The notes beneath the pieces were generated by a model. That model worked only from the letters and a program-made list of their open reading frames with translations. It was not told the DNA's origin and did no database searches. From assembly GCA_034431475.1 (NCBI GenBank), contig DAOUDE010000074.1, positions 31,348 to 95,347 on the forward strand: a stretch of DNA of 64,000 nt. Direction: 5' to 3'. The stretch comes from Thermomicrobiales bacterium. GTDB lineage: Bacteria; Chloroflexota; Chloroflexia; Thermomicrobiales; UBA6265. Positions 305-38,892 of this stretch are shown here, one piece after another (position 1 is the first letter of the stretch; the number at the start of each line of letters is the position of its first letter). The translations under genes were made by a program, and so were the position numbers.

Positions 305-694
305 CTAGTGCGCCGCAGACTCAGCGAACGCGTCGTACGCCGCCGCGTCCATCAGGGCCTCGAACTTGGCCAGATCGCTGATGCGCACCTTCACCAGCCA
401 TGCGTCACCGTACGGGGACGAGTTCACCGTCTCTGGCGCATCCACGGCCGCGTCGTTGCGCTCCACGACCTCGCCATCGACCGGCGAAAAGATGTCGTTC
501 GCCGCCTTCACCGATTCAACTACGCCGAGCGCGGCGTTCTCGGCGATCGCGGTGCCGACCTCCGGGAGGTCCAGATAGGTGATGTCACCCAACTCGGACT
601 GCGCAAAGTCTGTAACACCGATGGTGGCGACGTCGCCGTCCAGCGAAACCCATTCGTGCGTTTTGGTGTACCGGCGATCTGCTGGAGATGACAT
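305..694 (-). CDS. gcvH: glycine cleavage system H protein
   Basis: 129 aa; YTKTHEWV N-terminus and lipoyl-lysine motif GVVESVKAANDIFSPV. Confidence 0.95.
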   Translation of the reverse strand: MSSPADRRYTKTHEWVSLDGDVATIGVTDFAQSELGDITYLDLPEVGTAIAENAALGVVESVKAANDIFSPVDGEVVERNDAAVDAPETVNSSPYGDAWLVKVRISDLAKFEALMDAAAYDAFAESAAH

Positions 695-728
695 GATTGC
701 CTGCGTGCTCCTTGCCTACCTGTCGGGC

Positions 729-1868
729 CTAGCTCTTGCTGCGGCGGTAAAAGGGAAGCTTGACTTGCTCGGCGCGAACCGGGCGCCCACGAATGATGAT
801 GTCCAGCGGCTTCCCGACGCCTGCGACATCAGCGTCCACCAGGGCCAGCCCGATTTCTTCTCCCAGGGAGGGCGAGCGGCCACCGCTGGTGACAACACCC
901 ACCGCGCGACCGTCGACCTGGACCTCGTAGCCATGTCGGGCCGAGCCAGCTCGTTCGACCAGGCGGAACCCGACCGTTTTTCGCGGGACGCCGTCCTCTT
1001 TCAGCCTGGCGATCGCGTCACGGCCAATAAAATCGCCCTTGTCCAGCTTGACTGCCCAGCCGACGCCTGCCTCGAGCGGGCTGATATCGTCGGCCAGCTC
1101 GTTGCCATAGAGCGGCATACGCGCTTCAAGGCGGAGGGTGTCGCGGGCCCCCAGGCCAATCGGCGCAAGGCCAAGCGACTCGCCAGCGGCCATGAGCGCG
1201 TCCCAGAGGGCGGCGGTCGATTCCTGGGGCACGTAGAACTCGAAGCCGTCTTCGCCCGTATACCCCGTCCGGGCCGCCAGAACCGGGATTCCGGCGACAG
1301 TCGCGCTCATGCAGCTAAACGGCTTGAGTTCAGCGAGCGGTGTCTCGGTGATGCCAGCCACGATCTCCAGGGCGTTGGGGCCCTGGATGGCGATCATGCC
1401 CAGCTCGTCGGAGACGTCATTGACCTCGACATCGAGTCGTTGCAGGGCGGCGCGTTGCTTCTTCAGCCAGGCCACATCCTTGTCGTGGTTCGCCGCGTTG
1501 ATGACCACGAAATACCCTGGCTCATCCTGCAACCGGTAGACGATGATGTCGTCGATCACGCCGCCCGTTGGGTTCGGGAGCATGGAGTACTGCGCTTCTC
1601 CGGGCTGCAGGACAGACACGTCGTTGGTGGTGATTTGCTGCAGGTAGTCCAACGCATCAGGGCCAGTCACACGGACCTGCCCCATATGTCCCAGATCGAA
1701 CAAGCCAGCCGCGGTGCGAACGGTGCGGTGCTCGTTCAGGATGCCGCTGTACTGCACCGGCATGTACCAGCCGGCAAACGGCACCATCCGGGCGCCGAGG
1801 GCCTCGTGCCGGCTGGTTAGCGCCGTGTGTTGCAGCGCGTTACCGCCTCCGGTTTCCTCGCCAGACAC
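729..1868 (-). CDS. gcvT: glycine cleavage system aminomethyltransferase T
   Basis: 379 aa; MVPFAGWYMPVQYSGILNEHRTVRTAAGLFDLGHMGQVRVTG is the conserved GcvT N-terminal core; GTG start at 1866-1868. Confidence 0.95.
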   Translation of the reverse strand: MSGEETGGGNALQHTALTSRHEALGARMVPFAGWYMPVQYSGILNEHRTVRTAAGLFDLGHMGQVRVTGPDALDYLQQITTNDVSVLQPGEAQYSMLPNPTGGVIDDIIVYRLQDEPGYFVVINAANHDKDVAWLKKQRAALQRLDVEVNDVSDELGMIAIQGPNALEIVAGITETPLAELKPFSCMSATVAGIPVLAARTGYTGEDGFEFYVPQESTAALWDALMAAGESLGLAPIGLGARDTLRLEARMPLYGNELADDISPLEAGVGWAVKLDKGDFIGRDAIARLKEDGVPRKTVGFRLVERAGSARHGYEVQVDGRAVGVVTSGGRSPSLGEEIGLALVDADVAGVGKPLDIIIRGRPVRAEQVKLPFYRRSKS

Positions 1869-2020: not shown

Positions 2021-3331
2021 TTATGGTGCCGTCACCGTCGGCAGCAGGCCAAGTCGTCTGAATACCTCGTCCACCTCGGTCAACTGCCGGCGCGGGTCAA
2101 AGAGACCCCGCAGCGTGTCGCCACTGACCAGCTCGCTCACCTCAGGGTCAGCCTCCAGCGCCTCGAGCAGCGCCGGCCCGCCGTTCAGGGCCGCATGCGC
2201 GTGGCGCTGCACCACCTTGTACGCGGCGTGGCGGTCCATGCCCGCATCGACCAGGGCCAGCAGTGCCGGTTGGGAAAAGACGAGGCCGCGCATGGAATCG
2301 AGATTGTGCTGCATCCGCTCCGGATAGACGGCCAGTCGGTCAAGGATGTCGATCATTTCGTGCAGCATGAAGTCGAGCACGATCGTCGCGTCCGGCAAAA
2401 TCACGCGCTCTGTGGAACTGTGACTGATATCACGCTCGTGCCACAGCGCGTTGTTCTCGGCGGCCGTGACCGCGTAGCCCCGCAGGAGCCGCGCCAGCCC
2501 CGTGACCCGCTCTGACGCATGCGGGTTGCGCTTGTGGGGCATAGCCGATGATCCCTGGTTCCCCGGATCGAAGGGCTCTTCTGCTTCCGCAACCTCCGTT
2601 CGCTGCAGGTGGCGAATCTCGGTCGCGAACTTTTCCAAGGTTCCGCCAATGCCAGCGAGCACCGACAGGAAGAAGGCATGCCGGTCACGCTGGAGCACCT
2701 GAGTAGAAGCCAGTGCAGCTTGCAGTCCGAGGGCTGCGCACACCTCTTCTTCCAGACTCGGCGGCACGTGTGCGTGCGTACCGACTGCCCCCGAGATCTT
2801 GCCGACGGCAATGTCCTCGCTCGCCAGTGCCAGCCGGCGCTGCTGGCGACGCAGTTCGTCGTACCAGACCGCCAGCTTCAGCCCGAACGTCGTTGGCTCA
2901 GCGTGCATCCCGTGAGTACGCCCAATCATGAGCGTATCCTTGTACGTGACAGCCTGGCGACCAACGATGTCCGTGAGCTCTCGCAGACGCGTCGCCAGGA
3001 GTTTGGCGGCGGCAACGAGTTGCGTCGCCTGAGCCGTATCCACCACGTCGGTGCTCGTCAGGCCCATGTGGATAAATCGCGCTTCCGGCCCAACCGTTTC
3101 ACCCGTGGCCCGCAAGAACGCGATCAGGTCATGATCAACTTCGCGCTCGATTTCGGCCATACGCTCCAGGTCACAGGTCGCTGCGCGGATCGCCGGCATC
3201 GCTGAGTCCGGGATGCGCCCGCGTGCGTGCCACCCTTCACAGGCCGCCTTCTCCACGGCAAGCCAGGCATCGATGCGCGCCCGCTCATTCCAGATTGCGC
3301 CCATTTCGGGAAGGGTGTACCGCTCGATCAC
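2021..3331 (-). CDS. purB: adenylosuccinate lyase
   Basis: ORF 2021..3718 is over-extended. Homology begins at VIERYTLPEMGAIWNERARIDAWLAVE (GTG at 3329-3331), the canonical PurB N-terminus. The SSAMPHKRNP catalytic loop is present. Confidence 0.92.
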   Translation of the reverse strand: MIERYTLPEMGAIWNERARIDAWLAVEKAACEGWHARGRIPDSAMPAIRAATCDLERMAEIEREVDHDLIAFLRATGETVGPEARFIHMGLTSTDVVDTAQATQLVAAAKLLATRLRELTDIVGRQAVTYKDTLMIGRTHGMHAEPTTFGLKLAVWYDELRRQQRRLALASEDIAVGKISGAVGTHAHVPPSLEEEVCAALGLQAALASTQVLQRDRHAFFLSVLAGIGGTLEKFATEIRHLQRTEVAEAEEPFDPGNQGSSAMPHKRNPHASERVTGLARLLRGYAVTAAENNALWHERDISHSSTERVILPDATIVLDFMLHEMIDILDRLAVYPERMQHNLDSMRGLVFSQPALLALVDAGMDRHAAYKVVQRHAHAALNGGPALLEALEADPEVSELVSGDTLRGLFDPRRQLTEVDEVFRRLGLLPTVTAP

Positions 3332-3463
3332 GCGCCTCGCTCCTGTTGCCCACGTCTCGGTCCGCCAGGTTGAGTATAGGAATTGATTGTCTGCGCCCTG
3401 CCGCTCCGGTACACTCGGCTGCGAGGGAATGAGAGCCACGCAAACCTTTGACACGCTCGGTCT

Positions 3464-3630
3464 ATAGCGCCAGGACTCGCCACGAGGAGACGAGTCGACG
3501 AGGCGGGAGTCAATCGAAACACTCGGCGGATGGCTCCCCGGCAAGCACAGTCGAAACGGGCGGAACAAACCGGCAAGGCAACAAGCCGACAAAACCCTCC
3601 CGGAGTGCATCCTCTCACTTCCCATCACAA
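3464..3630 (+). ncRNA. glmS ribozyme: glmS ribozyme (GlcN6P-dependent self-cleaving riboswitch) in the glmS 5' leader
   Basis: AUAGCGCCAGGACU...GUCGACGAGG...AAUCGAAACACUCGGCGGAUGGCUCCCCGGC...CCGGCAAGG is colinear with the conserved glmS ribozyme core (A|GCGCC cleavage site at 3466/3467). It ends about 85 nt before the glmS ATG. The 3' boundary is approximate. Confidence 0.85.
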
Positions 3631-3716
3631 CTTGGCGATGGTGTACGCCTGGACGGTGGTTCAGTGCGGTCACCATGTTTCGCATTTGCCGGACGCAACA
3701 AGCCGGAGGACCAGGC

Positions 3717-5483
3717 ATGTGTGGAGTATTTGGGTACGTTGGCGCAGAGACCGACGTTGGAGCAACGGTGCTCTCCGCGCTGAAGACGCTTGAGTATCGC
3801 GGTTACGATTCCTGGGGAGTGGCGGTCGCCGCCGCGGACGGCATGATGGTCGACAAAGAGCCGGGCCGCATCAACGGCGTACACAAGCCCTTTCCGCGCT
3901 CGCGCAGCGGCCTCGGCCACACGCGCTGGGCAACCCACGGCGGAGTAACTGCCGAGAACGCGCACCCCCACGTGGATGAGGCCGGGCGCATTGCCGTCGT
4001 CCACAACGGGATCATCGAAAACCACGCTGTGCTGAAAACTGAACTGCTGGCGCGCGGTCACACGTTTCGCTCGGAAACCGACAGTGAGGTGGTCGTTCAC
4101 CTGGTCGAAGAAGCCCTGAATCAGGGTGAATCCCTCCCCCAGGCGGTGTCATCGGTTTTCGAAAGGCTCGAGGGGTACAACGCGGTCGTGGTCCTGGACC
4201 GAGCAAGCGAGCAGTTTGCCGCAGCCAAGCGCGTTTCTCCGTTGGTCATTGGCCGGGGCGCAAACGCCTCCACCATCGCTTCGGACGCAGTGGCAATGCA
4301 CGGTCACGCGGACGAGTTGATTTACCTCGATGACGAACAACTTGCGATCTTGACGGCGACGGGCATTGACGTGCTTGACCGTGTAACGCTTGAGCCATCG
4401 ACACCATATGTCGTCCCGATTCACGCAGCCGACAACGACATCGACCTTGGCGCACACCCGCACTTCATGGCCAAGGAGATGTCCGAGCAGCCGCGATCTC
4501 TGCGCCGCCTCGTACAGGAGGGCAGAGAAGAGATCACGGCGCTGGCAGCCGCCGTGCGAGAGTCTGATCGGGTCCTGCTGGTGGGATGCGGCACCGCCGC
4601 AAACGCCGCGCTGGCCGGGACTTACATCTTCAGCGACCTTTGCGGACGCGAAGCCAACCTTGTGGCGGCGTCCGAGTTCCGCTACCGCAGCGCCTTTCTG
4701 GATGAGCGCGCCCTTGTCATCGCCATCTCACAGAGCGGTGAAACCATTGACGTGCTGGAGGCCGTTCACGAAGCGCAAAGGCGCGGCGCGCGCGTAGCGG
4801 CCATCGTGAATACACCTAACTCGTCGCTCGACAGGCTTGTCAAGACCAGCGTGCATCTGCGCTCCGGCGTCGAGCAGTGCGTGCTGGCGACGAAGTCATA
4901 CACAGCGATGCTGGCGACGTTGATCCTGACTGCCTGTGAATTGAGCGGTGACTGGGACGCCGGAGCCCATGCTGTCGCCCGTGCAGCCGACACTATCGAA
5001 GCCATGCTGGGTAGTGGTACGCCCGACCAACTCCGTGAGCTCGGGGGATATGTTGCTTCACGCGAGCATATGTTCCCGATTGGCCGCGGCGTTCACTACG
5101 CTTCGGCGCTCGAGGCCGCCCTCAAGATCAAGGAAGTCAGCTATGTTCACGCCGAAGGATTTGCCGCTGGCGAGCTGAAGCACGGCGTGATCGCACTCAT
5201 CGAGCCTGGCACGCCGTGCCTGGTCTTCGCGGCATCCGATCTGACGCACACGGATGTACTCTCCGGAGCGGCTGAGCTGCGCAGCCGGGGCGGCTACATG
5301 ATTGGGGTCGGGAGTGAGCCAGACCCAACCTTCGATGCGTTCGTCACGGTGCCGGAAAGCGGCATCGCGAACGTCATCGTTGAAGCGCTCCCCGGACAAC
5401 TGCTTGGCTACTACGCTGCGCTGGCTCGCGGAAACGACCCGGATCGTCCCCGCAACCTGGCCAAGAGCGTTACGGTCAAATGA
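3717..5483 (+). CDS. glmS: glutamine--fructose-6-phosphate aminotransferase (isomerizing)
   Basis: Starts MCGVFGYVG (catalytic Cys2) after GGAGGA at 3705-3710. Two SIS domains; ends ...LAKSVTVK. Confidence 0.97.
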   Translation: MCGVFGYVGAETDVGATVLSALKTLEYRGYDSWGVAVAAADGMMVDKEPGRINGVHKPFPRSRSGLGHTRWATHGGVTAENAHPHVDEAGRIAVVHNGIIENHAVLKTELLARGHTFRSETDSEVVVHLVEEALNQGESLPQAVSSVFERLEGYNAVVVLDRASEQFAAAKRVSPLVIGRGANASTIASDAVAMHGHADELIYLDDEQLAILTATGIDVLDRVTLEPSTPYVVPIHAADNDIDLGAHPHFMAKEMSEQPRSLRRLVQEGREEITALAAAVRESDRVLLVGCGTAANAALAGTYIFSDLCGREANLVAASEFRYRSAFLDERALVIAISQSGETIDVLEAVHEAQRRGARVAAIVNTPNSSLDRLVKTSVHLRSGVEQCVLATKSYTAMLATLILTACELSGDWDAGAHAVARAADTIEAMLGSGTPDQLRELGGYVASREHMFPIGRGVHYASALEAALKIKEVSYVHAEGFAAGELKHGVIALIEPGTPCLVFAASDLTHTDVLSGAAELRSRGGYMIGVGSEPDPTFDAFVTVPESGIANVIVEALPGQLLGYYAALARGNDPDRPRNLAKSVTVK

Positions 5484-6271: not shown

Positions 6272-6545
6272 CCCGAGCCTGCGGCCGCGCGCGCCCGATT
6301 CATGGCCAGGATTTCTTCCAGGTTTGAATTTCGAGGTCCGCACGTTGGTAGTTCCGCTGCGGCACTTTTGTGCCAGCAGAACACCCTCGGCCAGTACTAT
6401 GCTTGGTACCCTTCGAGTGGCGCCGCCCGCTCACCTGGCGCCATTCATCAGTGAGTCTTCTCAACGGAGAGAAGCACGTTATGACCGATGCTGTTCATTT
6501 GCTGGCGTTCTCGACATCAGCACGGAACGGTTCCGGAACTGAGCG

Positions 6546-7817
6546 ATGATCGCACCAACATCACTTCTGAACCCCAACCTTACGCCACTACGACAGGGAA
6601 GCTTTAACGGATGGCGAGGCCATCTGGACCGGGAACAGGTACCTCCTGTTGTGGCCATCGCTGGCTCCCGCGGCAAGACCAGCGTGCTGCGCGCGGCAGA
6701 GGCCATTTTCACCAACGCCAACCTGCGTACGGCCACCCGGTCCAGCGGTGGCGTCGAGATCGAAGGCGAAAGCCAGCGCGGCGAGATTTCGCCGTGGGCG
6801 CGCGCACTCACCAGGTTGCGTTCAGGAGGGCTCGATGTCGCCTTCCAGGAGGTCGACTGGGTAACGGTGCTGGCAACGGCGTCGGGGGATCTCACGTATC
6901 CCGTGCTTGCCGTCACCAATCTCTGTGCAAACAACGATGCATGTCTCGCCACTCCCGACACAATGTTGGCCCGCAAGGCGCTCGCCCGCATCCGGGCGAG
7001 TCTGCCCGGCACGGCTCAACTTGTCCTCAACGCCCACGATTTCGCCCTCGCTGACGACGACGGCGAGGTTTCCGCTCAGCACTACCTCGTCGGGATGACA
7101 CCGGACGCCCCCATGTTGCGCCGGCATCTGGCGAAAGGCGGCAATGCCTGCTACATCCACAACCACAGCGTCGTGCTGGCCGAGAAAGGCAAGCCGTGTG
7201 CGGTGGCAGAGACCGCCGAGATTCCCTGGTTTCGCGCTGAGTCAGTCCCGTTTTCTGTCCAGAATGGGCTGATGGCGACCGCAATTGCTCACGCCTGTGG
7301 CCTCAGTGTTTCCCAGATTCGTGCCGGTCTGACCGCCTACGAGCCGCGCGCAGCGACCATGCCCGGCTCATTCAACGTCTTTGAGGCCGGCCCGGCAACC
7401 GTCGTGGTGGACCGTCCGACACACCCCTGGTTCCTTCGCACCTCGATACGCGGTGCAGCCGGTCTGGGAGCCCGCCGCCAGATTCGGGTCGTTGGCCCAA
7501 TGCTTTCGGTACCGGCAGAAGATATGAACGAGGTTGGAAGACTTCTTGGCCGGCAGTCTGGCGCGATCATCATGCATGGCGACTGGCCGCATGACCGCCT
7601 CGGACTGTTCAAACTCGGCGTCGCAATGAATGATGTGCCACCGGTGATTCTTCACGCCGCCGACGAACGGCGGGCGATACTGCAAGGGCTGGAAATGCTT
7701 CGCCCAGATGACGTTCTCCTGGTTCTCGCCGAGAACCCTGCCGCGGTGGTCCGGTTGGTCGCGAGCCAGGTTCGGCGCATCGAAGAAGCGCTCCCGCAGC
7801 CCGCCGGAGCCGCATGA
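6546..7817 (+). CDS. Mur ligase family protein resembling the cyanophycin-synthetase M domain, with degenerate catalytic motifs
   Basis: 423 aa; P-loop VVAIAGSRGKTSV; LAVTNLCANNDAC where Mur ligases have TN(I/L)xxDH(L/M); MPGSFNVFE...VVVDRPTHP where CphA/Mur ligases have PGRxN...DYAHNP. ATGA overlap with polX. Confidence 0.7.
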   Translation: MIAPTSLLNPNLTPLRQGSFNGWRGHLDREQVPPVVAIAGSRGKTSVLRAAEAIFTNANLRTATRSSGGVEIEGESQRGEISPWARALTRLRSGGLDVAFQEVDWVTVLATASGDLTYPVLAVTNLCANNDACLATPDTMLARKALARIRASLPGTAQLVLNAHDFALADDDGEVSAQHYLVGMTPDAPMLRRHLAKGGNACYIHNHSVVLAEKGKPCAVAETAEIPWFRAESVPFSVQNGLMATAIAHACGLSVSQIRAGLTAYEPRAATMPGSFNVFEAGPATVVVDRPTHPWFLRTSIRGAAGLGARRQIRVVGPMLSVPAEDMNEVGRLLGRQSGAIIMHGDWPHDRLGLFKLGVAMNDVPPVILHAADERRAILQGLEMLRPDDVLLVLAENPAAVVRLVASQVRRIEEALPQPAGAA

Positions 7818-9490
7818 GCGCAGGACTCTCCAACAGCCGCCTTGCGGAACGGCTCGATCGACACGCCAGGCTGCTGGAGATCGCAGGCGAAAGCGCATTC
7901 CGCGCCCGCTCTTACCTGCGCGCGGCCGAGACGGTGCGCGAACTCGACGTTCCGGTCAACGAAATCGCCCGGGATGGCTTGTTGCGGACACTGCCCGGTG
8001 TCGGCGAAGCCATGGCTGGCGCCATCACCAGCTTGCTGGAGACTGGCTCGTTTGCCGGTCACGATGAGCTCACTCAACAGTTTCCCGAGTCGTTGCTTGA
8101 CCTCGCTTCGGTGCCAGGCATCGGACCCAAGAGCGTCAACAAGCTGTTCACCAAGCTCAAGGTCGCCACACTCGACGAGCTTGCGGCAGCAGCAGCGAGC
8201 GGGATTATTGCCGCCACCCCGGGGCTTGGTAATCGCGTTCAGAAAGCTGCCGTCGAAGGGCTGGCGCAGCTCGCCGCACGCACTGGAAAGATTCCGCTCG
8301 GCAGCGCTCGGGCGGCGGCCGCTCTATTCGCAGCTGCCTACAGCGTCACGCGTCCACAGGACGCGATTTCCGCCACTGGCGGCGTGCGTCGGTGGGACGT
8401 TCTGGTGGACGAGTTGCGCTTTGTCATCGCGACTGCCGACCCGGATGATGCACGCAACGCCATCAGCCGCCTTCCTGGGGTGGAGTCGGTCACGGCAGAG
8501 TCCGCGCATGAACTTGCCATCCGTTTCGATGACGACAAGTCGGGGCGCGTCTATCTGACATCGCCCGAGTCGTACGGGTCACTCCTCGCACGGACAACCG
8601 GAACCCCCGCTCATCTCGCACGGCTCGGCGAAATCTCCGACGGCCTCGCTGCCGAGGAAATGGTCTATGCCGCAGTGGGTCTGCCCTGGATACCGCCGGA
8701 ACTCCGGTCTGGCGACGAGGTCTTCACGAGGCTGGGCGAGATCCCAGATCTAATCACGACCGCAGATCTCAACGGCGAACTCCACGCACATACCACCTGG
8801 AGCGACGGGCAGGCGACGGTCGAAGAGATGGCCAGGTCGGCGAGGAAACGCGGGTATACCTTTCTCGGTATCACCGACCACAGCCAGAGCCTGGCGGTGG
8901 CCAACGGACTCAATCACGGAAGGCTGCTTGCGCAGCGTGCAGAACTGCATGCTGCGTCCTCCAACGTCGGGATCCCGCTCCTCGCGGGCGCAGAGGTCGA
9001 GGTACTTTCCGACGGGTCCATGGATTATCCGGACACGGTGTTGGCAGAACTGGATGTGGTTGTTGGCTCCCTGCACGGTGGGCTGCGGCAGCCTCGTGCC
9101 AAACTGGTCGATCGCCAGGTGCGAACGCTCCGCAACCCGCATGTCGATATCCTCGCCCATCCATCCGGCCGGCTCCTCGAACGCCGGGAAGGCGGCGATT
9201 TCGACTGGGATGTCACGTTTGCCACGGCGGCAGAAACCGGCACGGCGCTTGAAATCAATGCAGATCCCGCACGCCTTGACCTCGACCCGAAACTGGCCCG
9301 CATCGCCGCTGAGGCAGGGTGCCTGATCACTATCAACAGCGATGCTCACTGGGTTGATGGCTTCGACACGGTTGAATTCGGCGTCATGATGGCCAGGAAA
9401 GCCTGGCTGAAACCAGTCCAGGTGCTGAACGCCTGGGAGCCGGAGCGAGTGCTGCTCTGGCTCAGGGATCGTGCTGCGGCGCGTCGCTAG
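7814..9490 (+). CDS. polX: family X DNA polymerase / PHP-domain 3'-5' exonuclease (PolX)
   Basis: 558 aa; N-terminal 8-kDa and HhH motifs (LPGVGEAMAGAI, VPGIGPKSVNKL, TPGLGNRVQKAA). C-terminal PHP domain (GELHAHTTWSDG, GITDHS, SDAH). Confidence 0.9.
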   Translation: MSAGLSNSRLAERLDRHARLLEIAGESAFRARSYLRAAETVRELDVPVNEIARDGLLRTLPGVGEAMAGAITSLLETGSFAGHDELTQQFPESLLDLASVPGIGPKSVNKLFTKLKVATLDELAAAAASGIIAATPGLGNRVQKAAVEGLAQLAARTGKIPLGSARAAAALFAAAYSVTRPQDAISATGGVRRWDVLVDELRFVIATADPDDARNAISRLPGVESVTAESAHELAIRFDDDKSGRVYLTSPESYGSLLARTTGTPAHLARLGEISDGLAAEEMVYAAVGLPWIPPELRSGDEVFTRLGEIPDLITTADLNGELHAHTTWSDGQATVEEMARSARKRGYTFLGITDHSQSLAVANGLNHGRLLAQRAELHAASSNVGIPLLAGAEVEVLSDGSMDYPDTVLAELDVVVGSLHGGLRQPRAKLVDRQVRTLRNPHVDILAHPSGRLLERREGGDFDWDVTFATAAETGTALEINADPARLDLDPKLARIAAEAGCLITINSDAHWVDGFDTVEFGVMMARKAWLKPVQVLNAWEPERVLLWLRDRAAARR

Positions 9491-12400
9491 GAAGCAACCA
9501 GCACCTGCTCTGCCGGTTGCTTCACCCGGGCCGTCCCGGCCGCGAGTCTCACCGCCGCAATCCCTCCGACGGAAAGCAACTGATCTTGCAGTTCCTTGCT
9601 CCACTCAACGGAGCGCGACCGGCTGCGCAGGACGCGAAGCCGGCCACTGCGCATGGGAACCACGAACACGACCGGATTGTCACCTTCATACTGGCGCAAT
9701 ACGCGGTCAAGCTCTTGCAGCAATCGCACATCGGTCCATCTGTCCGACGCCGGCCCCAGCTGCACGACCACGCTTTCGGCTGGTGTCTGTGGCGCCGCAA
9801 GTGCTGGCAGGTCAGTGGTCATGGACTCACAAACGAGCTGGAGGGCTTCCCCGCGCTTCTCCAGCTTGCCTCGGATGTCGACGATGGTCCCTTCGCTCAG
9901 TACCCCGCTAAACTGCTCGTAGGTCGAGGGAAAAAGCACGACCTCCACCTGCGCTGACAGATCCTCAGCGTTAACGACGGCCATAGATTTGTTCGTTTTC
10001 GTCGTGATTCGCCGCACGCTCTCTATAATCGCCAGCACGCGCACTGAGCTATTGACCTCCAGGTGCTCGAGCTGCGAAATGTCGCAAATCGACCGGCCCT
10101 CCGGAGACGACGCAACTCTCTCCATGACCTCTGTCAGTGGGTGGTCACTCATGTACGTGCCAAGGAGTTCCTTCTCCCACTCGAGAACCTGCCGTGAGTC
10201 AAGCGTGACTTCTGGCAAGATGTCGACGGGCACTTCGTGAACGGAGGCCTCCCCAAAGAGATCCATCTGCCCTCGCGCCGACGCACGCTGTCGCTTCTGG
10301 GCGGCGCCGATTGCCGCATCCAGCCCCTCCAGGATCCCGCCTCGGTTGCCTAGCACATCCAGCGCGCCCGCCTTGGCGAGAGATTCCAGCACCCGCCGGT
10401 TCACAGTTCCCCACTCGATGGCGTCGCACAGGGCAGAAAGGCTGCCAAATGCGTGGTTTGGCGTGGCGCTGCGCTGGGCGACAATCGACGTGACGGCCCC
10501 TGTCCCGACATTCTTGACCGCCGCAAGCCCAAACCGTACCGCCTTGCCCGTTTCATGCGGCTCGACACTGAATTCGACACCGCTATGATTGATGCTTGGG
10601 GGAAGCACCACAATGCCGGATCGCCGGCATTCCGCGAGTAACGCGACGATGCGTTCGGTGTTGCCAAGTTCCGACGTGAGCAGTGCCGCCATGAACTCCA
10701 CCGGATGATTGGCCTTGAGGTACGCCGTTTGCGCGGCGATGACGGCGTAGGCGGCGGAGTGTGCTTTCGGGAATCCATAGCCCGCAAACTTCTCGATCAA
10801 GTCAAAGACTTCAGTCGCCAGCTTCTTTGCGATCGAGTTCTCGCCACACCCGGAAATGAACCGATCCCGGTACTTGGCCATCTGCTCCGGAAGCTTCTTG
10901 CCCATCGCCTTGCGTAGGCCGTCGCCTTCCGCCATGGAGAAGCCTGCCAGCACGTTCGCGATGCGAATCACCTGCTCCTGGTACAGCGCCACCCCGTAGG
11001 TTTCCGCCAGGATCGGTTCCATGTCCGGGTGCAGGTACGACGTCTCAGCCTTGCCATGCTTCCGGGATATGTAGTCAGGGGCCATCGCCATCGGCCCCGG
11101 CCGGATCAGCGCCATCAGCGCCACCAGGTCGTCAAAGCAGTTGGGGGCAACGTCGACGGTCATCCGGGCGGTCGTCCCGCTCTCCAGTTGGAAGACCCCG
11201 GCCGTTTCTCCTCGCTGGAGCAGCGCGAACGCATGATCGTCTTCGAGCGGGATGGTCTCCAGGGATATGTCGTGACCACCGGCCTGCAACAACGTGACGG
11301 CTTTCCCGAGCACGGTCAATGTGCGCAAGCCGAGGAAGTCCATCTTGAGCAGACCCAATTCCTCAAGCTGCGTCATCGGAAACTGAGTCGTGATATCCCC
11401 TTCGCTCTTGCCGCCAGCGCGCTGGAGAGGGACATGCTCCACGAGTGGGTCGCGCGAGATGACCACACCCGCCGCGTGGGTGGACGAGTGCCGGGCGATG
11501 CCCTCCACCTTGCGGGCGGTGTCAATCAACTCACGAACCGAATCCTCGGCATCGTAAAGCGCCTGCAGTTCTGGAACCTTCTCCATCGCGTTGGAGATGG
11601 TGATGCCAGGCCCGGTGGGAATCAGCTTGGCAACCCGGTCGACTTCGCCGAAGGATCTCCCCATCGCGCGGCCACTGTCACGAACCGCCGCCTTGGCGCC
11701 AAGTGTCCCGAACGTCACGATCTGTGCGACCCGGTCAGCACCATACTTCCTGACCACGTAGTCAATTACTTCGCCTCGTCGATCATCAGCGAAGTCAATA
11801 TCGATGTCCGGCATCGAGATGCGTGACGGATTGAGGAAGCGCTCGAAAATCAGGTTGTATTTCAGTGGATCGAGTCCGGTAATGTCGAGCGAATAGGTAA
11901 CGATGCTTCCAGCCGAGGACCCACGACCCGGACCAACCAGGATGCCGTTCTCTTTCGCGTACCTAATAAAGTCCCAGACCACCAGGAAGTAGTTTGAAAA
12001 CCCCATTCCGCTGATAACGCTCAGCTCGTACGTGAGCCGCTCCTCGACGGCGCCCGAAACGTGCCCATACCGCTTCTCGGCGCCAATCCGGCACAGGTGC
12101 TCCAGGTAGGCATCCGCCGTTTCGAACTCCGCCGGCCGCGGGAACTCCGGCAAGTGGTAGCCCTTGAAACTGAGATCGAGGTTGCACATCTCCGCGATGC
12201 GCATGGTGTTGCCGATGGCCTCTGGCACCCCGTCAAAAAGGCGCGCCATCTGCTCGCCGCTCTTGAGAAAGAGCTGGTCAGACTCGGTTTTCATGCGCTT
12301 GGCATCGTTCAAGGTTGCATTCGTCTGAATGCACACCAGAAGATCTTGCGCCGAAGCGTCCTCCTGATTGCAGTAGTGGACATCGTTGGTCGCCACCAGC

Positions 12401-12987
12401 GGCAGCTCGAGCTCTCGAGCGAGCGCAATCAGATCACCGTTGACCTGGAGCTGCTCCTTGATGCCATGATCCTGTATTTCAATGTAGAAGCGCTCCGGCC
12501 CGAAGATCTCCTTGAGCTTGACGGCGTAGTCTCGTGCCAGCTCGGGTCGGCCGTGCAGAATGTTGTTGGCCACCGGTCCGCCCAGGCAGGCCGACGTGGC
12601 GATGATCCCCTGGCCGAGCTCGCCCAGCATTTCAAGATCGATACGAGGCCGGTAGTAGTACCCCTCAAGCTGCGCCCGGGTGGAGAGCTTCAGCAGGTTG
12701 CGGTAGCCGGTTTCGTTTTCGGCAAGGAGCAGCAAGTGATAGGACTTGCGTTCCCGCGCCCGCGCGCTGCCCTCGGCCAGGTAGGCCTCTACCCCAACAA
12801 TTGGGTGAATGCCGGCTGCACTTGCCGTCTTGTACCACTCCATCGCTCCGTACATGACCCCGTGGTCTGTGACAGCAATGTGCTTGATACCCAGATCTTG
12901 CGCACGCGCGGCGTACTCCTTCGACCGGCCCATGCCGTCCAGCAACGAGTACTCGGTGTGGAGATGGAGGTGCGCAAACTCCGCCAA
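9487..12987 (-). CDS. dnaE: DNA polymerase III alpha subunit
   Basis: 1166 aa; PHP N-terminus FAHLHLHTEYSLLDG, palm/fingers and OB-fold regions; TTG start at 12985-12987 preceded by AGGAACAGGAG. Confidence 0.97.
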   Translation of the reverse strand: MAEFAHLHLHTEYSLLDGMGRSKEYAARAQDLGIKHIAVTDHGVMYGAMEWYKTASAAGIHPIVGVEAYLAEGSARARERKSYHLLLLAENETGYRNLLKLSTRAQLEGYYYRPRIDLEMLGELGQGIIATSACLGGPVANNILHGRPELARDYAVKLKEIFGPERFYIEIQDHGIKEQLQVNGDLIALARELELPLVATNDVHYCNQEDASAQDLLVCIQTNATLNDAKRMKTESDQLFLKSGEQMARLFDGVPEAIGNTMRIAEMCNLDLSFKGYHLPEFPRPAEFETADAYLEHLCRIGAEKRYGHVSGAVEERLTYELSVISGMGFSNYFLVVWDFIRYAKENGILVGPGRGSSAGSIVTYSLDITGLDPLKYNLIFERFLNPSRISMPDIDIDFADDRRGEVIDYVVRKYGADRVAQIVTFGTLGAKAAVRDSGRAMGRSFGEVDRVAKLIPTGPGITISNAMEKVPELQALYDAEDSVRELIDTARKVEGIARHSSTHAAGVVISRDPLVEHVPLQRAGGKSEGDITTQFPMTQLEELGLLKMDFLGLRTLTVLGKAVTLLQAGGHDISLETIPLEDDHAFALLQRGETAGVFQLESGTTARMTVDVAPNCFDDLVALMALIRPGPMAMAPDYISRKHGKAETSYLHPDMEPILAETYGVALYQEQVIRIANVLAGFSMAEGDGLRKAMGKKLPEQMAKYRDRFISGCGENSIAKKLATEVFDLIEKFAGYGFPKAHSAAYAVIAAQTAYLKANHPVEFMAALLTSELGNTERIVALLAECRRSGIVVLPPSINHSGVEFSVEPHETGKAVRFGLAAVKNVGTGAVTSIVAQRSATPNHAFGSLSALCDAIEWGTVNRRVLESLAKAGALDVLGNRGGILEGLDAAIGAAQKRQRASARGQMDLFGEASVHEVPVDILPEVTLDSRQVLEWEKELLGTYMSDHPLTEVMERVASSPEGRSICDISQLEHLEVNSSVRVLAIIESVRRITTKTNKSMAVVNAEDLSAQVEVVLFPSTYEQFSGVLSEGTIVDIRGKLEKRGEALQLVCESMTTDLPALAAPQTPAESVVVQLGPASDRWTDVRLLQELDRVLRQYEGDNPVVFVVPMRSGRLRVLRSRSRSVEWSKELQDQLLSVGGIAAVRLAAGTARVKQPAEQVLVAS

Positions 12988-15101: not shown

Positions 15102-16163
15102 CTACGGATACCCCATGATAGGACGCGGCAGCGCCAGGTACGCGAGGTACGTGCCGTCAGCACTGAGCGCTGGCGACGTGCACGCCAACCCTGTCAACGT
15201 GTGCATGGTGGCTTCCGCGGTGCCTCCCCGCAGAACCGCAATCTGGCTCCCACTGTCTACCGCCAGCGTTCCGGTGGCATCGATCGCGGGATCGCGAGCG
15301 CCGTCAGCCAGAGCCGAGGTGACCGCCGACGGTTTTCCGCCCGTGGCTGGCAGCCGGTAAACGTCGCTCCGCCCCTCGACACTGGCCGAGTAGAGCAGGT
15401 CGTCAGTTGTCCTCTCCCAGATGATCGGAGCATTGGCCGTCATGCTTGTCAGGCGTCTTCCTGATCGCTCGGCAAGTTCCACGCGGAAGATCCCCGATGT
15501 CGCGCCCTTCTGCTCTGCCTGCACTGCCACAGCAATCGCCTCGCCGTCAGGCGACCAGGCCATGCTCGTCACGCTACTCCGTGCCACGTCGCTGTTTCCG
15601 CCACTCGCGCCACCCAGCGATGTCACCTGCTGCCGCATGTCCCCAATAACGTCGAAGACGCAAAGCTCATCGCCCTGTCCGTCCCAGCAGATGAACGCGA
15701 TCCGCGTCCCGTCTGGCGACCACGCAGGACCCCCACGCGTTACGATCGGGGGTCGGATGGCGCCATCTGGTCCGTCGTAGAGAGTTATGGGGGGAATCGT
15801 GGCCTCTGAATGGACGTTGACGATTCGCAGGAGCCGCGATTGCGGATCAAGGAACGCGATTTCGGAGTTATCTGGCGACCATGCCGGCCTGCCCACAATG
15901 TGCATCGCGGTCAGCAGGGAAACCTGGCTCGATGAGACGTTCCACACCTTCAGGCCGTGTTCGTCGCCCCAGGCCAGCATCTCACCATTCGGGGACCACG
16001 CAGGAGCGCCAAAAGTGTCGTCGATCCACCTGGGTGCACCCTCTGCTCCCGTGATGTAGAGCCCGGCGCGAGGCGAATCGGCCCTGCAGCCACAGAGAAT
16101 CAATGAGGCGCATGCTGCGCCAGACAATTGGAGCACCTGCCGGCGGGCAAGCCGCACGTTCAC
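15102..16163 (-). CDS. PD40 (TolB-like) beta-propeller repeat protein with Tat/lipoprotein-like signal
   Basis: 353 aa; N-terminus MNVRLARRQVLQLSGAACASLILCGC. Repeated AWSP(D/N)G blades (PAWSPNGEMLAW, PAWSPDNSEIAF, PAWSPDGTRIAF, MAWSPDGEAIAV). GTGA overlap with the recF stop. Confidence 0.8.
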   Translation of the reverse strand: MNVRLARRQVLQLSGAACASLILCGCRADSPRAGLYITGAEGAPRWIDDTFGAPAWSPNGEMLAWGDEHGLKVWNVSSSQVSLLTAMHIVGRPAWSPDNSEIAFLDPQSRLLRIVNVHSEATIPPITLYDGPDGAIRPPIVTRGGPAWSPDGTRIAFICWDGQGDELCVFDVIGDMRQQVTSLGGASGGNSDVARSSVTSMAWSPDGEAIAVAVQAEQKGATSGIFRVELAERSGRRLTSMTANAPIIWERTTDDLLYSASVEGRSDVYRLPATGGKPSAVTSALADGARDPAIDATGTLAVDSGSQIAVLRGGTAEATMHTLTGLACTSPALSADGTYLAYLALPRPIMGYP

Positions 16164-17383
16164 GCGGCGCTCTCGGCTGGGATCACCTGCCCAGCGGAAA
16201 CCTGGATGACCGGGAGGTGCGCAAGCTCGGGCGCATCCAGATCACTCAAATCCGTAGCGGTCACGCAAACCTGCGCGGGGCGCATCGCGATCGCTTCGAC
16301 GACCAGGCGGCGGTGACGCTGATCCAGCTCCGAGAGAACATCATCCAGGAGCAGCACTGGCGGCTCACCAGCACCACCTTGCAGCAGATCCACCTCGGCC
16401 AGCTTGGTGGCGACCAGTGCCAGCCGCTGCTGCCCGCGAGAACCAAATCTACCCAGGTCAACACCGTCGACTCGAAAGACGAGATCGTCACGGTGCGGAC
16501 CCACCGAAGTCACCCCACGTCGCAGTTCCTCCGCTCGCGCATTGCTCAGAGCACGCGCGAACTGAGCGGCTATCGTTTGCTGAACTCTGGTCATCTGCGG
16601 TTCATCGTGAGGCCCGCCAGTTGGCAAGCGGTCGATTGCCGTCAGGCGATGAGGTTGGTAAGCAATCTCGAGCGTCTCGATCCCTGTCAGGCGCGCGAAA
16701 TGCTCGCGTGCGAGGGCGTCCAGGCCGGCGACGTAAATGGCCCGTTCGGAGAGCACGATTGTCGCGGCCGAGATGAGTTCACTGTCCCAGAACGGGAGCT
16801 CCTGGGCGGCTCGTCGCACCGCCGCGCTGCCTGCCTCACGTGCCAGCGAGCGCAAGAGACCGTTTCGCTGCTCGAGAACGCGCGTGAACCGGGAGAGTCC
16901 TCGCAGATACGTGCGACGTGCCTGGCTGATGGCAAGATCGAGGAAGCGCCGTCTGCCGCCGGGGGGGCCGGAGAGAAGCTCAACGTCGTCTGGTGAAAAG
17001 AGGACGGTCTTGAACTGCCCGACGACATCGATGGCCCTGGCGGGCTGATCATCGAGCTGGACGCTCTTCTTGATGCCGCTTCGTCCGTGCTCGTCGATCG
17101 CCAGGCCGATAGCCACTGAGTGGACCCCGTCGGTTCTGGTGAACTCTCCGCGCAACCTGGCGTAGGGAGACAGACCAAACGCAACGCCACTCTCCCAATT
17201 TGCAAGTTCTCGCTCCGAGGAGGTTCGGGGCGAACGAGTCGTCGCCAGCATGGCGATCGCTTCCATCAAGGTGGACTTGCCGCTCGCATTGCTACCAACC
17301 GCGCGGAACCCGGCCGGGGCTACCTCCAGACGCAGCGACCGAAACGAGCGGAACTCATCGAGCTCAAGTAGACGGAGATGCAC
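16160..17383 (-). CDS. recF: DNA replication and repair protein RecF
   Basis: 407 aa; FRSFRSL...GSNASGKSTLMEAI Walker A, signature GSRGQQRLALVA, Walker B VLLLDDVLSELD. Confidence 0.95.
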   Translation of the reverse strand: MHLRLLELDEFRSFRSLRLEVAPAGFRAVGSNASGKSTLMEAIAMLATTRSPRTSSERELANWESGVAFGLSPYARLRGEFTRTDGVHSVAIGLAIDEHGRSGIKKSVQLDDQPARAIDVVGQFKTVLFSPDDVELLSGPPGGRRRFLDLAISQARRTYLRGLSRFTRVLEQRNGLLRSLAREAGSAAVRRAAQELPFWDSELISAATIVLSERAIYVAGLDALAREHFARLTGIETLEIAYQPHRLTAIDRLPTGGPHDEPQMTRVQQTIAAQFARALSNARAEELRRGVTSVGPHRDDLVFRVDGVDLGRFGSRGQQRLALVATKLAEVDLLQGGAGEPPVLLLDDVLSELDQRHRRLVVEAIAMRPAQVCVTATDLSDLDAPELAHLPVIQVSAGQVIPAESAA

Positions 17384-17398
17384 AAGAGAAGTCAGGCG

Positions 17399-18541
17399 CT
17401 AGTTCGCGCCGATGACCATCGGCATGATCACGTAGGTGTAATCCGTCGATTCCAGCGGGCGCAGCACGCCGGCCTGGTTCGACCCATTCATACCGAGCAC
17501 TACGCGGCCGGTCCGCAGCACACTCAGGACATCAAGGAGATAGCGTGAGTTGAATGCGATCTGTCCTTCTGGCCCATTCACTGCCGCAGACATTTCGCTC
17601 TGGCTGCTTCCCCGTTCCGCTGCTGTCGCCGAGACCTGCACCTGACCCGGCGCAAGCTCATCCGCGCTCACCTTGGCGCCAATTCGCACCACATCATTAT
17701 TGTCGCGTGCAAAGAACCCGGCGCGGCGGACGGCCGTGAGAAATTCCTCACGGCTAAGCTCGATTTCTGTCGCAAACTCCCGAGGAATGATCTGCCGGAA
17801 ATCCGGGAACGTGCCATCGATGAGCCGGGATGAAAAGGTCGTATCCCCGGTGGAGACAACGAGTTGTCCCCTGTTTGGGGTGACGGTCAGTTCGACCGGT
17901 TCTGTGCGGTCCCCCAGGATACGGGAAAGCTCACGCATGGCTCTGGCTGGCACAATGATGTCCAGGCGCTCCGTCACCGGGGCCGCAAGCTGACCTTCAC
18001 GCACGGCCAACCGGAAGCCATCAGCCGAAGCCATCGTCAGGCGGTCATCATCGAACCGAATCAGGACTCCAGCCAGAACTGGCCGACTGTCATCGGAAGC
18101 TGCGGCGAACTCGACCAGTCCAATCATCTCTCGCAGAATCTGAGGATCAACCGTCGCAGTGTATCCCCCAGCTTCTGGTTGCGGCATGAGCGGAAATTCG
18201 TCCGCATCGATGCCGTTGATTTCTGCGTCGGCGCCCAGGCCCTGCACCTTGAGCACCAGGCGGCCCTGGTCATTGGAGAGGCGCACTGGCTCGGCCGGAA
18301 GCGTGTTCACGAACTCGGACAGCAACCGGGCATCCACCGTCATCCGGCCCTGCTCGGTCACCTGTGCGGGAATGGAGGTGGAAATCCCGATCTCCTGGTT
18401 CGTGGCAGCGAGCTTGAGTGAGTCTCCTTCCGCTTCAATGAGGACATTGCTGAGCACCGGGTAGGTTGTTTTGGTGGCAACAGCGCGACTGACCTGGCTC
18501 AACGAGCGCTGCAACAGGTCTTGAGGAGCTGAAACATCCAC
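17399..18541 (-). CDS. dnaN: DNA polymerase III beta sliding clamp
   Basis: 380 aa; three-domain clamp pattern, ends ...YTYVIMPMVIGAN. GTG start with GGGAG 10 nt upstream. Confidence 0.96.
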   Translation of the reverse strand: MDVSAPQDLLQRSLSQVSRAVATKTTYPVLSNVLIEAEGDSLKLAATNQEIGISTSIPAQVTEQGRMTVDARLLSEFVNTLPAEPVRLSNDQGRLVLKVQGLGADAEINGIDADEFPLMPQPEAGGYTATVDPQILREMIGLVEFAAASDDSRPVLAGVLIRFDDDRLTMASADGFRLAVREGQLAAPVTERLDIIVPARAMRELSRILGDRTEPVELTVTPNRGQLVVSTGDTTFSSRLIDGTFPDFRQIIPREFATEIELSREEFLTAVRRAGFFARDNNDVVRIGAKVSADELAPGQVQVSATAAERGSSQSEMSAAVNGPEGQIAFNSRYLLDVLSVLRTGRVVLGMNGSNQAGVLRPLESTDYTYVIMPMVIGAN

Positions 18542-18587
18542 CCTGAACCACTCCCGCTACGATGCTGTACGGACACTCCGGGCGGCG

Positions 18588-18596
18588 AGTATAGCA
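18588..18596 (-). promoter_or_regulatory. extended -10 element (TGcTATACT) upstream of dnaN
   Basis: Minus strand TGCTATACT; would give a leader of about 40 nt. No good -35. Confidence 0.35.
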
Positions 18597-18676
18597 TTGC
18601 CTTTCCCTAGTCTCCGGACGCCAATCTTTGGCGGCTGGTTGGTCGAGCACTTTCCTGCTTCCCGATCCGTGACACC

Positions 18677-18723
18677 TTGACATGCAGAACACGTGTTCTA
18701 TACTTCGTTCAGAACAAAAGTTC
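18677..18723 (+). promoter_or_regulatory. consensus promoter overlapped by two LexA (Cheo-type) SOS boxes
   Basis: TTGACA 18677-18682, 16-nt spacer, TATACT 18699-18704. Box 1 is GAACACGTGTTC at 18687-18698. Box 2 is GAACAAAAGTTC at 18712-18723. Both carry identical CAGAAC/GTTCTA flanks. Confidence 0.75.
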
Positions 18724-18743
18724 TAAACGCTCGGAGGTTGGGC

Positions 18744-19364
18744 ATGAGCGCAGTTGAAACATTCGAGCCGGCAAAGTTCCTGACACGGGTGAACGGCTCT
18801 GAGTATCTCGAAGTGAAGTGGCGTCTCGTTTGGCTGCGGGATCGTCATCCGGAAGCTCAGGTGGAAACCGAGCTTGTGAGCCACCATGGCGATACCGCGG
18901 TCTTTCGCGCCCGTGTGGCCATTCCGGACGGCGGGTCCGCGACCGGCTGGGGCAGCGAGTCTGCCGGCGATTTTCGTGACTATCTGGAGAAGGCCGAAAC
19001 CAAGGCCATTGGCCGTGCCCTTGCCGCGCTGGGCTTCGGCACGCAGTTCTGTCCCGATCATGAGTTCGGCGCGATGGCCGGGCGCGTCGTCGATGCGCCG
19101 GTGAAGGTGAGCCGCTTCTCTCGCGGGCAGCAAAATGATGAGCGGCCGGCCGCAGTGGCTCCTGCGCCGGAGCAAGCGGCTACGCAGCGCCAGTTGCGCT
19201 ACATGCAGGCCGTGGCGCGCGAGGCCGGGTTCGATGCCCAGGCACTCGATGAGCTGGCTACCAGGGAATTTGGCGGTCCGGCGATGTCCTTGAGCCGCCG
19301 CGATGCCTCGGCGTTGATTGACCTGATCCAGAACCAGCAGGCTGAGGTTCCCCTGGCGTCCTAG
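18744..19364 (+). CDS. SOS-box-controlled protein with Rad52/Sak/DdrA-like single-strand-annealing signature (function inferred)
   Basis: ATG 18744 six nt after GGAGG (18733-18737); the track ORF starts upstream at GTG 18693 inside the promoter. YLEVKWRLVWLRDRHP...YLEKAETKAIGRALAALGFG resembles the Rad52-family KxAx(S/T)xAxxRAxxxxG(F/I)G motif. High GC3. Confidence 0.6.
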   Translation: MSAVETFEPAKFLTRVNGSEYLEVKWRLVWLRDRHPEAQVETELVSHHGDTAVFRARVAIPDGGSATGWGSESAGDFRDYLEKAETKAIGRALAALGFGTQFCPDHEFGAMAGRVVDAPVKVSRFSRGQQNDERPAAVAPAPEQAATQRQLRYMQAVAREAGFDAQALDELATREFGGPAMSLSRRDASALIDLIQNQQAEVPLAS

Positions 19365-19378
19365 GCGCCACCAGGAAA

Positions 19379-19606
19379 ATGGAGGTCGCTGTGGCTCGAA
19401 CAACGAAGAAGAAGGCAGCCCCTGTGGCGGAGGTCAGCGTGCTGCAGGAGCGCCGAGCGGCGCTGCGAGGCCGACTTGATGACGGGTACAGGCGTATCGA
19501 GGAGGCCGAGTTGGCCGGCGCCGATGTCGCTGAGTGGGAAGCCTTCTGGTTCAAGTTGCTCCACGAGTATGAGGATGTCTGCCGCGAGCTCGATCAGGCC
19601 GCCTGA
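19379..19606 (+). CDS. small charged helical hypothetical protein, second gene of the SOS-box operon
   Basis: 75 aa (71 aa if GTG 19391, which has GGAGG 5 nt upstream). High GC3. Followed by a hairpin terminator. Confidence 0.55.
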   Translation: MEVAVARTTKKKAAPVAEVSVLQERRAALRGRLDDGYRRIEEAELAGADVAEWEAFWFKLLHEYEDVCRELDQAA

Positions 19607-19624
19607 CAGGTACGGCGTTACAAG

Positions 19625-19665
19625 GCAGGAGGGGCCATGCCGGTTTCCAGCATGGCCCCTCCTGC
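19625..19665 (+). terminator. hairpin terminator
   Basis: GCAGGAGGGGCCATGC-CGGTTTCCA-GCATGGCCCCTCCTGC, a 16-bp stem between convergent genes. Confidence 0.65.
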
Positions 19666-19681
19666 TTGGCGTACGTTTCCG

Positions 19682-38866: not shown

Positions 38867-38892
38867 CTGGAAGAATGAAACTACCGCAAGGT

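Follow-up and report, generated by a model that had tools for sequence, protein, structure and literature searches.

Altered catalytic triads in bacterial family X DNA polymerases (PolXs) were surveyed and tested by Prostova et al. (Nucleic Acids Research, 2022; PMC9226535). They were found in 27.5% of 2935 non-redundant prokaryotic PolXs, often with basic residues; triads with a basic third position include EEK, EER, DAR and NDR. In this altered class Leu occupied the Asn279 position in 47.7% and Pro the Asp276 position in 15% (Table S2 of that work), the fingers were often truncated, and the PHP site was conserved in 98%. Altered PolXs belonged mainly to one monophyletic Bacteroidetes/Deinococcus cluster, with several independent groups besides, and two Chloroflexi genomes had both a canonical and a noncanonical PolX (Table S4). 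Deinococcus PolXs with the triads AEE and ARE gave no primer extension in any condition and showed robust Mn-dependent 3'-5' exonuclease activity, which was abolished by mutation of PHP ligands and untouched by palm mutations. A single triad change, D203A, abolished polymerisation by B. subtilis PolX (PMC9226535). A 2026 survey found the PHP site to be more conserved than the polymerase site (PMC12926913). Here we describe the polX gene in a 64,000-nucleotide stretch of a Thermomicrobiales bacterium (contig DAOUDE010000074.1, positions 31,348 to 95,347; assembly GCA_034431475.1), called the window below. Its product is most probably a noncanonical pseudo-polymerase, predicted to perform no DNA synthesis and to retain the PHP nuclease. 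The class has been known since 2022, and the window PolX adds an independently derived member to it. We infer the loss of polymerase and the retention of nuclease activity by analogy with the tested Deinococcus and B. subtilis enzymes.

The gene and its domains are located in the window as follows:

7814 to 9490, + strand: polX coding sequence, noncanonical family X polymerase homologue, 558 amino acids plus TAG stop (from the list of open reading frames)
7814 to 8083, + strand: 8-kDa domain with the first helix-hairpin-helix (HhH) motif, LPGVG (residues 60-64, positions 7991-8005); Pfam HHH_8, E=5e-16
within the 8-kDa domain, + strand: Ala70 (8021-8023) and Ala66 (8009-8011), equivalent to Pol beta Lys72 and Lys68 by residue mapping
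8084 to 8293, + strand: second HhH subdomain, DNA-binding, with VPGIGPK (residues 100-106, positions 8111-8131); Pfam HHH_5, E=6e-9
8294 to 8587, + strand: palm with remodelled catalytic site, containing GGVRR (residues 189-193), Asp199, Glu200 (8411-8413), Arg202 (8417-8419) and Arg245 (8546-8548)
8588 to 8713, + strand: truncated fingers (subdomain for selection of deoxynucleoside triphosphate, dNTP), 36 residues, with an 18-residue deletion after residue ~277
8774 to 9487, + strand: PHP nuclease domain with the complete set of metal ligands, identified by Pfam PHP and showing the lowest rate of nonsynonymous change

The gene encodes a full-length bacterial family X polymerase homologue, as Pfam domains, end-to-end PDB alignments and structure prediction agree. 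Pfam detected the two HhH regions listed above, a further HHH match (1e-8), a fragment of the Pol beta 'thumb' and the PHP domain. With phmmer the protein aligned end-to-end with the PolXs of Thermus thermophilus (3au2, E=2e-98) and Deinococcus radiodurans (2w9m, E=1.6e-73). An AlphaFold2 model, for which 67 homologues were used, had a predicted local distance difference test score (pLDDT) of 88.6 and a predicted template modelling score (pTM) of 0.72. When the whole-chain model was submitted to Foldseek, both bacterial PolX structures came out on top, the best being Thermus PolX 3au6 (template modelling (TM) score 0.74), followed by Pol lambda and Pol beta with E~1e-12. The Pol beta-like nucleotidyltransferase palm fold is present in the model, with the expected order of strands and helices over residues 184-249 at pLDDT ~89-98. 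Relatives with a name are from metagenome-assembled genomes (MAGs) of Thermomicrobiales (Chloroflexota).

In the palm, D198, D200 and D243 of Thermus PolX (D190, D192 and D256 of Pol beta) correspond to Glu200, Arg202 and Arg245 in a single ungapped register, which was taken from three alignments (phmmer to 3au2 and two MAFFT alignments). The first two residues lie in TGGVRRWDVLVDELRFVIAT (residues 188-207) and the third in the strand SGRVYLTS (residues 243-250, positions 8540-8563). The spacing agrees with this assignment: in Pol beta, Thermus PolX and the window PolX alike, the triad pair stands at +7 and +9 from the second Arg of the G-S-x-R-R motif and the third residue 15 before the steric gate. 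Pol beta numbering was verified against PDB, where the query gave a top-scoring, full-length (1-335) match to Pol beta chains. Past the N-terminus of the palm the placing of human Pol beta by MAFFT was unreliable, and the Thermus-to-Pol beta equivalences of PMC9226535 were used there together with the spacing rules. The model places Arg202 inside a predicted strand (201-206) and Arg245 inside another (243-249) of the palm sheet, and the palm, at 80 residues, is as long as in canonical PolX. A register shifted by one residue (D199/L201) was discarded on account of the flanks RRW..V and F[VL][IV]A, which need no gap in the alignment to relatives that have the canonical D-D-D triad: G-D-L-D-F of these relatives (50-57% identity) lies gap-free on V-D-E-L-R-F. 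A Tyr substituting for the third Asp was also discarded, as all three alignments gave Arg245.

A preliminary description of this locus, covering 8387-8560 (residues 192-249, one residue short of the end of the SGRVYLTS strand), had assigned Glu200 and Arg202 to the D-x-D pair and had found no Asp in the third strand. Both assignments hold in all three alignments, Arg245 being the residue in question. The description had also stated that all three palm carboxylates are gone; this is correct for the two positions now occupied by Arg and not for the first, where Glu200 is itself a carboxylate. In these alignments one of the three triad positions is acidic. The change is not private to the window: the triad was altered in 23/23 of the closest cluster representatives (67-82% identity), which have Glu or Asp at position 1 and any of L, C, V, R, A, Q or I at position 2. 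Position 3 is Arg in 21 of the 24 members of the window PolX subclade.

The dNTP pocket is lost as well. The G-S-x-R-R motif reads GGVRR, with Gly190 in place of the Ser that binds P-gamma. Thermus Y-L-T-G-S-K-A-H-S-I-R-L-R (Pol beta Y-F-T-G-S-D-I-F-N...R283) has become R-T-T-G-T-P-A-H-L-A-R-L-G, so that RTTGTPAHLARLG (8591-8629) stands in place of YLTGSKAHSIRLR. In this segment the steric gate YF/YL is RT and the GS cis-peptide is GT; Lys263 of Thermus is replaced by Pro265, Asn279 of Pol beta (Ser266 of Thermus) by Leu268, and Arg283 of Pol beta (Arg270 of Thermus) by Gly272. These replacements agree with the residue frequencies that Table S2 of PMC9226535 gives for altered PolXs (Leu at the Asn279 position, Pro at the Asp276 position). 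The fingers comprise 36 residues as against at least 54 in canonical PolX, the 18-residue deletion being seen in every alignment. Pfam model PF14791 was matched over positions 43-62 of 63 with 22 bits, whereas the active Thermus PolX, taken as control, matched the full model with 83 bits; the coverage is thus down to one third. In the 8-kDa domain, which the preliminary description had called intact along with the HhH motifs, LPGVG and VPGIGPK are indeed present, but the lyase residues Lys72 and Lys68 of Pol beta are Ala70 and Ala66. Because of these replacements, and because Ala occupies the Lys72 position in 102/120 homologues, the sequence gives no reason to expect deoxyribose phosphate (dRP) lyase chemistry like that of Pol beta.

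The PHP domain presents the opposite picture. Its ligands H324, H326, D331, H356, E394, H421, H449, E480, D510 and H512 are all in place, as the preliminary description had said, and are invariant in 120/120 homologues; the HHHEHHEDH set is complete (nine residues, with D331 in addition). Across the homologues PHP is the most and the palm the least conserved domain. Among the four closest genes the proportion of nonsynonymous differences (pN) was 0.07-0.09 in PHP and 0.15-0.24 in the palm, and that of synonymous differences (pS) was 0.56-0.77, a range in which synonymous sites are saturated, and only pN contrasts were used. In every domain pN was far below pS. As the palm has a higher pN than PHP, but one far below pS, it appears to be relaxed relative to PHP and still clearly under purifying selection. 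With two triad carboxylates and the pocket lost, the fingers shortened, PHP kept and the Deinococcus enzymes as precedent, the earlier prediction of a polymerase-dead, nuclease-competent PolX is thus probably right.

By every sequence criterion the window PolX is a noncanonical (altered) PolX sensu Prostova et al. 2022. The class is defined by at least one non-acidic triad position in a full-length PolX, and here there are two Arg; a degraded pocket and short fingers are also found (Leu268, Pro265, RT at the gate, 36 vs 54 residues). The protein falls outside the main Bacteroidetes/Deinococcus cluster, the window clade being nested in a clade of Thermomicrobiales D-D-D PolXs.

The closest tested counterparts are the PolXs of D. 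radiodurans (2W9M, AEE) and D. gobiensis (ARE). They share with the window PolX the five-domain architecture, the replacement of triad Asp, a hydrophobic residue at the Asn279 position, the loss of the Lys and the gate, truncated fingers and a fully conserved nine-residue PHP site. By this likeness the same outcome, no polymerase and a retained 3'-5' exonuclease, would be predicted for the window PolX. It differs from them in its triad (E-R-R), operon partner and independent origin. Its palm has the unchanged 80 residues, whereas that of D. radiodurans PolX has 71 here (a 7-residue deletion was reported); in the tree the latter grouped with Longimicrobium sequences and the window clade among Thermomicrobiales PolXs. 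The best match overall was the canonical, active PolX of Thermus thermophilus HB8 (3AU2/3AU6; 36% identity, E=2e-98, TM 0.74), which agrees with the window PolX in domain order, HhH motifs and PHP fold. The Thermus enzyme polymerises and has D198/D200/D243, GSARR, YLTGSKAHS and 54-residue fingers; the window PolX has E/R/R, GGVRR, RTTGTPAHL and 36 residues, respectively. The actinobacterial 'PolX-like' proteins (PMC12926913) follow the same logic, in that they retain the PHP nuclease and can do without the polymerase function. In those proteins, however, the polymerase region is deleted, whereas in the window PolX it is kept as a folded, selected module.

These features fit the following scheme. 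The Pol beta-like core (8-kDa domain, two HhH, palm and short fingers) would no longer bind catalytic metals or dNTP, and no synthesis would take place. Arg202 and Arg245 may pair with the conserved Asp199 and Glu200, replacing the metal ions. Purifying selection would keep the core as a module that binds DNA gaps or ends and hands the 3' terminus to the C-terminal PHP domain. The PHP metal centre, Mn-dependent in the tested PolXs, would trim DNA as a 3'-5' exonuclease, with the cleaning of 3' ends a probable further activity and incision at apurinic/apyrimidinic (AP) sites during repair a possible one. To our knowledge, AP-endonuclease activity has so far been found for canonical PolXs only. 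Continued selection on a dead core is understandable because the exonuclease of Thermus PolX is reported to need both POLXc and PHP (PMC2665239).

The relatives suggest in what order the polymerase was lost. The GTDB species genomes were scanned, which yielded 80 loci, and 120 protein clusters were also compared. Canonical PolXs in the scan (Proteobacteria, Anaerolineae/Thermoflexales) had D-D-D, Y-F-T-G-S-K-x-H-N and fingers of 54-62 residues. All PolXs of the Thermomicrobiales type had short fingers (35-40 residues) and had lost the pocket, and most of them had kept G-S-x-R-R together with D-D-D (88 of 120 protein clusters). Thermomicrobiales PolXs that combine D-D-D with the absence of a pocket were found at L004-L011, L013, L015-L018, L021, L023, L024, L026, L032, L035 and L049, and in P0025-P0120. 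Members of this group (e.g. P0025, L004-L011) are 50-57% identical to the window PolX and share with it the deletion of 18 residues from the fingers, the loss of the pocket (RATG[NS]AxHLxxLG), Ala at the lyase-Lys position and the gene context, in which polX follows glmS, tatD and a Mur-ligase-like gene (murL) and faces dnaE. They are without steric gate and without equivalents of the Lys, the Asn and Arg283. Unlike the window PolX, they have kept GSARR and all three Asp.

In a neighbour-joining tree (diagnostic columns left out, 100 bootstraps) the short-fingers clade received 95%, the window clade with L012 100%, and its nesting with the D-D-D PolXs of L004-L011 and L013 95%. Other altered triads (DDH, GDS, GDT, DNV, DNT, YHI) are scattered in the clade, and an NDR/DNK group includes Sphaerobacter. 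Since the window clade nests among D-D-D Thermomicrobiales PolXs with 95-100% bootstrap support, the tree indicates that its triad was lost independently of the Bacteroidetes/Deinococcus cluster. As read from these sequences, the decay is stepwise: the fingers deletion and pocket loss would have come first, in the ancestor shared by the Thermomicrobiales PolXs, and the triad would have been lost later, repeatedly. A broader interpretation is tentative, and we regard it as possible rather than probable. It holds that Thermomicrobiales PolX records the order of polymerase death, with fingers and pocket going first and the triad being lost independently at least six times. Many PolXs that are 'canonical' by triad would then already be non-polymerases, or would use the metal site for something beyond templated synthesis, and the coupled Mur-ligase-like partner may take part. 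The retention of D-D-D argues for a residual function of the metal site, the repeated losses for its dispensability.

The two genes adjoining polX are:

6546 to 7817, + strand: stand-alone Mur-ligase-like protein, 423 amino acids, resembling the M domain of cyanophycin synthetase
9487 to 12987, - strand: dnaE (Pol III alpha, 1166 amino acids), convergent with polX; identified from the open reading frame, Pfam PHP/DNA_pol3_alpha on identical loci, and synteny

The upstream gene had been described as a degenerate ligase next to polX, which cannot be maintained in the sense of a nucleic-acid ligase. The protein matched the NCBIfam cyanophycin synthetase model (E=2e-41, model positions 481-866 of 871) and, in PDB, CphA1 (7lg5, E=3e-14), with weak matches to MurE and MurF. 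No DNA-ligase nucleotidyltransferase or adenylation domain was found in it by the NCBIfam and PDB searches, in which all matches were of the Mur-ligase type. Since at least 98% of 118 homologues retain the ATP-binding P-loop G..GKT, the protein is divergent but not evidently dead. The family gave 214 database hits in the same kind of genomes as the PolX family, and it appears to be restricted to genomes of the Thermomicrobiales type. In the scan the gene was present at L001-L035, L042 and L049.

In the window the murL-like stop overlaps the polX start (ATGA, 7814-7817), and the genes are translationally coupled. Of 31 syntenic loci, 17 show a 4-nt overlap (ATGA or GTGA), and in 30 the gap does not exceed 64 nt. 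The order glmS-tatD-murL-polX, convergent with dnaE, is kept across the order, Sphaerobacter included. At L030 and L034 (Sphaerobacter sp. MAGs, ~9500-12330) the PolX locus match begins ~670 nt upstream of the tblastn PolX hit, and the Mur-ligase-like open reading frame of L030 appears to extend to 10663. A fusion, an extension or a problem of frame where murL meets polX could explain this. As D-D-D relatives have the gene pair too, the murL-polX context is, on comparison of these loci, older than the triad loss. We treat the coupling as a lead; it is no evidence of joint function.

This pairing is the starting point of one alternative, in which the Arg-lined palm binds a new ligand, such as a 3'-phosphate, a damaged end or some small molecule, and PolX forms a two-protein system with its co-translated Mur-ligase-like partner. 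The close spacing of the pair in the 31 loci, the small size of the partner family and its origin from Thermomicrobiales-type genomes as far as named or sampled, the conserved partner P-loop, and Arg at triad position 3 in most of the subclade are all consistent with such a system. However, the pairing preceded the triad loss and is shared by D-D-D relatives, synteny within one order that reaches as far as glmS and tatD can be simple inheritance, and no co-occurrence was found outside the order. The adjoining glmS suggests a role of the ligase in the cell envelope, and a basic residue at triad position 3 is common in altered PolXs (EEK, EER, DAR and NDR; PMC9226535). We therefore consider this alternative improbable.

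A second alternative, to which we give still less credence, is that the protein is a nucleotidyltransferase even now. It would rely on other acids (Asp199, Glu200 and those of the Asp239-241 loop) and on an unusual pocket, and its substrate preference may have changed. Some observations do weigh against a pseudo-polymerase in this respect. Asp199 and Glu200 are conserved acids at the site, the Arg245 strand comes after a conserved DDD(K) loop (239-241), and both Asp199-Glu200 and FDDDK are kept within the window PolX subclade; strictly, some metal binding at these residues is possible. The Pfam palm model PF14792 is uninformative: its missing hit was dropped as a sign of decay, as the active Thermus PolX (20 bits) and a canonical Chloroflexota PolX (17 bits) also score below the cut-off of 25. 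The saturation of synonymous sites makes the selection estimates rough. Purifying selection on the palm would also fit a nucleotidyltransferase, as would an early activity claim for the AEE-triad Deinococcus PolX, but that claim, discussed in PMC9226535, was not reproduced with highly purified enzyme. Moreover, Arg occupies two positions that must bind metal, the variability of triad position 2 speaks for no constraint there, all dNTP-contacting residues are replaced and 18 residues of the fingers are deleted.

A pseudogene in decay, or an artefact of assembly or frameshift, for which only the low conservation of the palm could be adduced, is hardly credible: the 558-codon frame is intact and of the same length in the relatives, pN lies far below pS everywhere, the PHP ligands are invariant, the AlphaFold2 model is confident, and 27 blocks of the sequence collection contain the identical protein, as do 23/23 contigs read. 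The identical gene is carried by assemblies GCA_046328355.1 and GCA_964476285.1. The contigs read include three independent assemblies (two NCBI assemblies and a Joint Genome Institute (JGI) metagenome), and since the pattern also recurs in relatives, an assembly error as the origin of the triad changes was ruled out. A pseudo-polymerase with a retained PHP nuclease is the reading we prefer to all three.

Some further observations concern the surroundings of the gene. The stops of polX (+) and dnaE (-) overlap in the palindrome CTAG (9487-9490), so that no room is left between the genes for terminators; in L002 the end of the dnaE match coincides with the polX stop, and in L001 and L003 it lies within 9 nt of that stop. 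Between tatD and the Mur-ligase-like gene there are ~275 nt (6272-6545) without a convincing + strand open reading frame, and 300-700 nt in L004-L035; a promoter, leader or small gene may lie in this gap. A full-length glmS ribozyme/riboswitch (Rfam RF00234, 71 bits) was found at 3455-3612 (+), directly upstream of glmS (3675-5483). The long minus-strand purB open reading frame (2021-3718) overlaps this ribozyme, and the true purB start is therefore probably further downstream. The other annotated genes of the window are housekeeping genes (purB, folD, recF, dnaN, queA, ruvB, ftsW, PNPase, tmk, ftsK), and no Ku, LigD or second PolX was seen among the annotated genes in the roughly half of the window that was scanned. 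At 16160-18541 (-) recF and dnaN are found together, and no full-length dnaA-sized open reading frame is listed directly upstream of dnaN; the bin at 18-20 kb (18000-20000) is the sole one in the window with positive GC skew (+0.04). Four open reading frames of 283-413 amino acids (579-1817 (+), 29672-30520 (+), 34441-35553 (-) and 38875-39900 (+)) had no Pfam match at E<=1e-5.

For annotation it follows that the window gene should not be named a DNA polymerase. It scores 402 bits with the NCBI PolX equivalog model, below the cut-off of 426, and its relatives carry the name 'PHP domain-containing protein'. With the window PolX, the class of PolX nucleases that are dead as polymerases would gain a well-sampled lineage of independent origin, and the window PolX supports the view that the PHP nuclease, and not DNA synthesis, is the selected function in bacterial PolX. 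The stepwise decay in the relatives is the most useful by-product of the analysis. A criterion based on the triad only would score the D-D-D, pocketless PolXs of Thermomicrobiales as canonical, and these proteins, having no recognisable pocket, are the more useful lead as a probe of the triad as a proxy for polymerase activity. If the stepwise reading is true, many PolXs that are 'canonical' by triad alone may already be non-polymerases, or may have their metal site repurposed.

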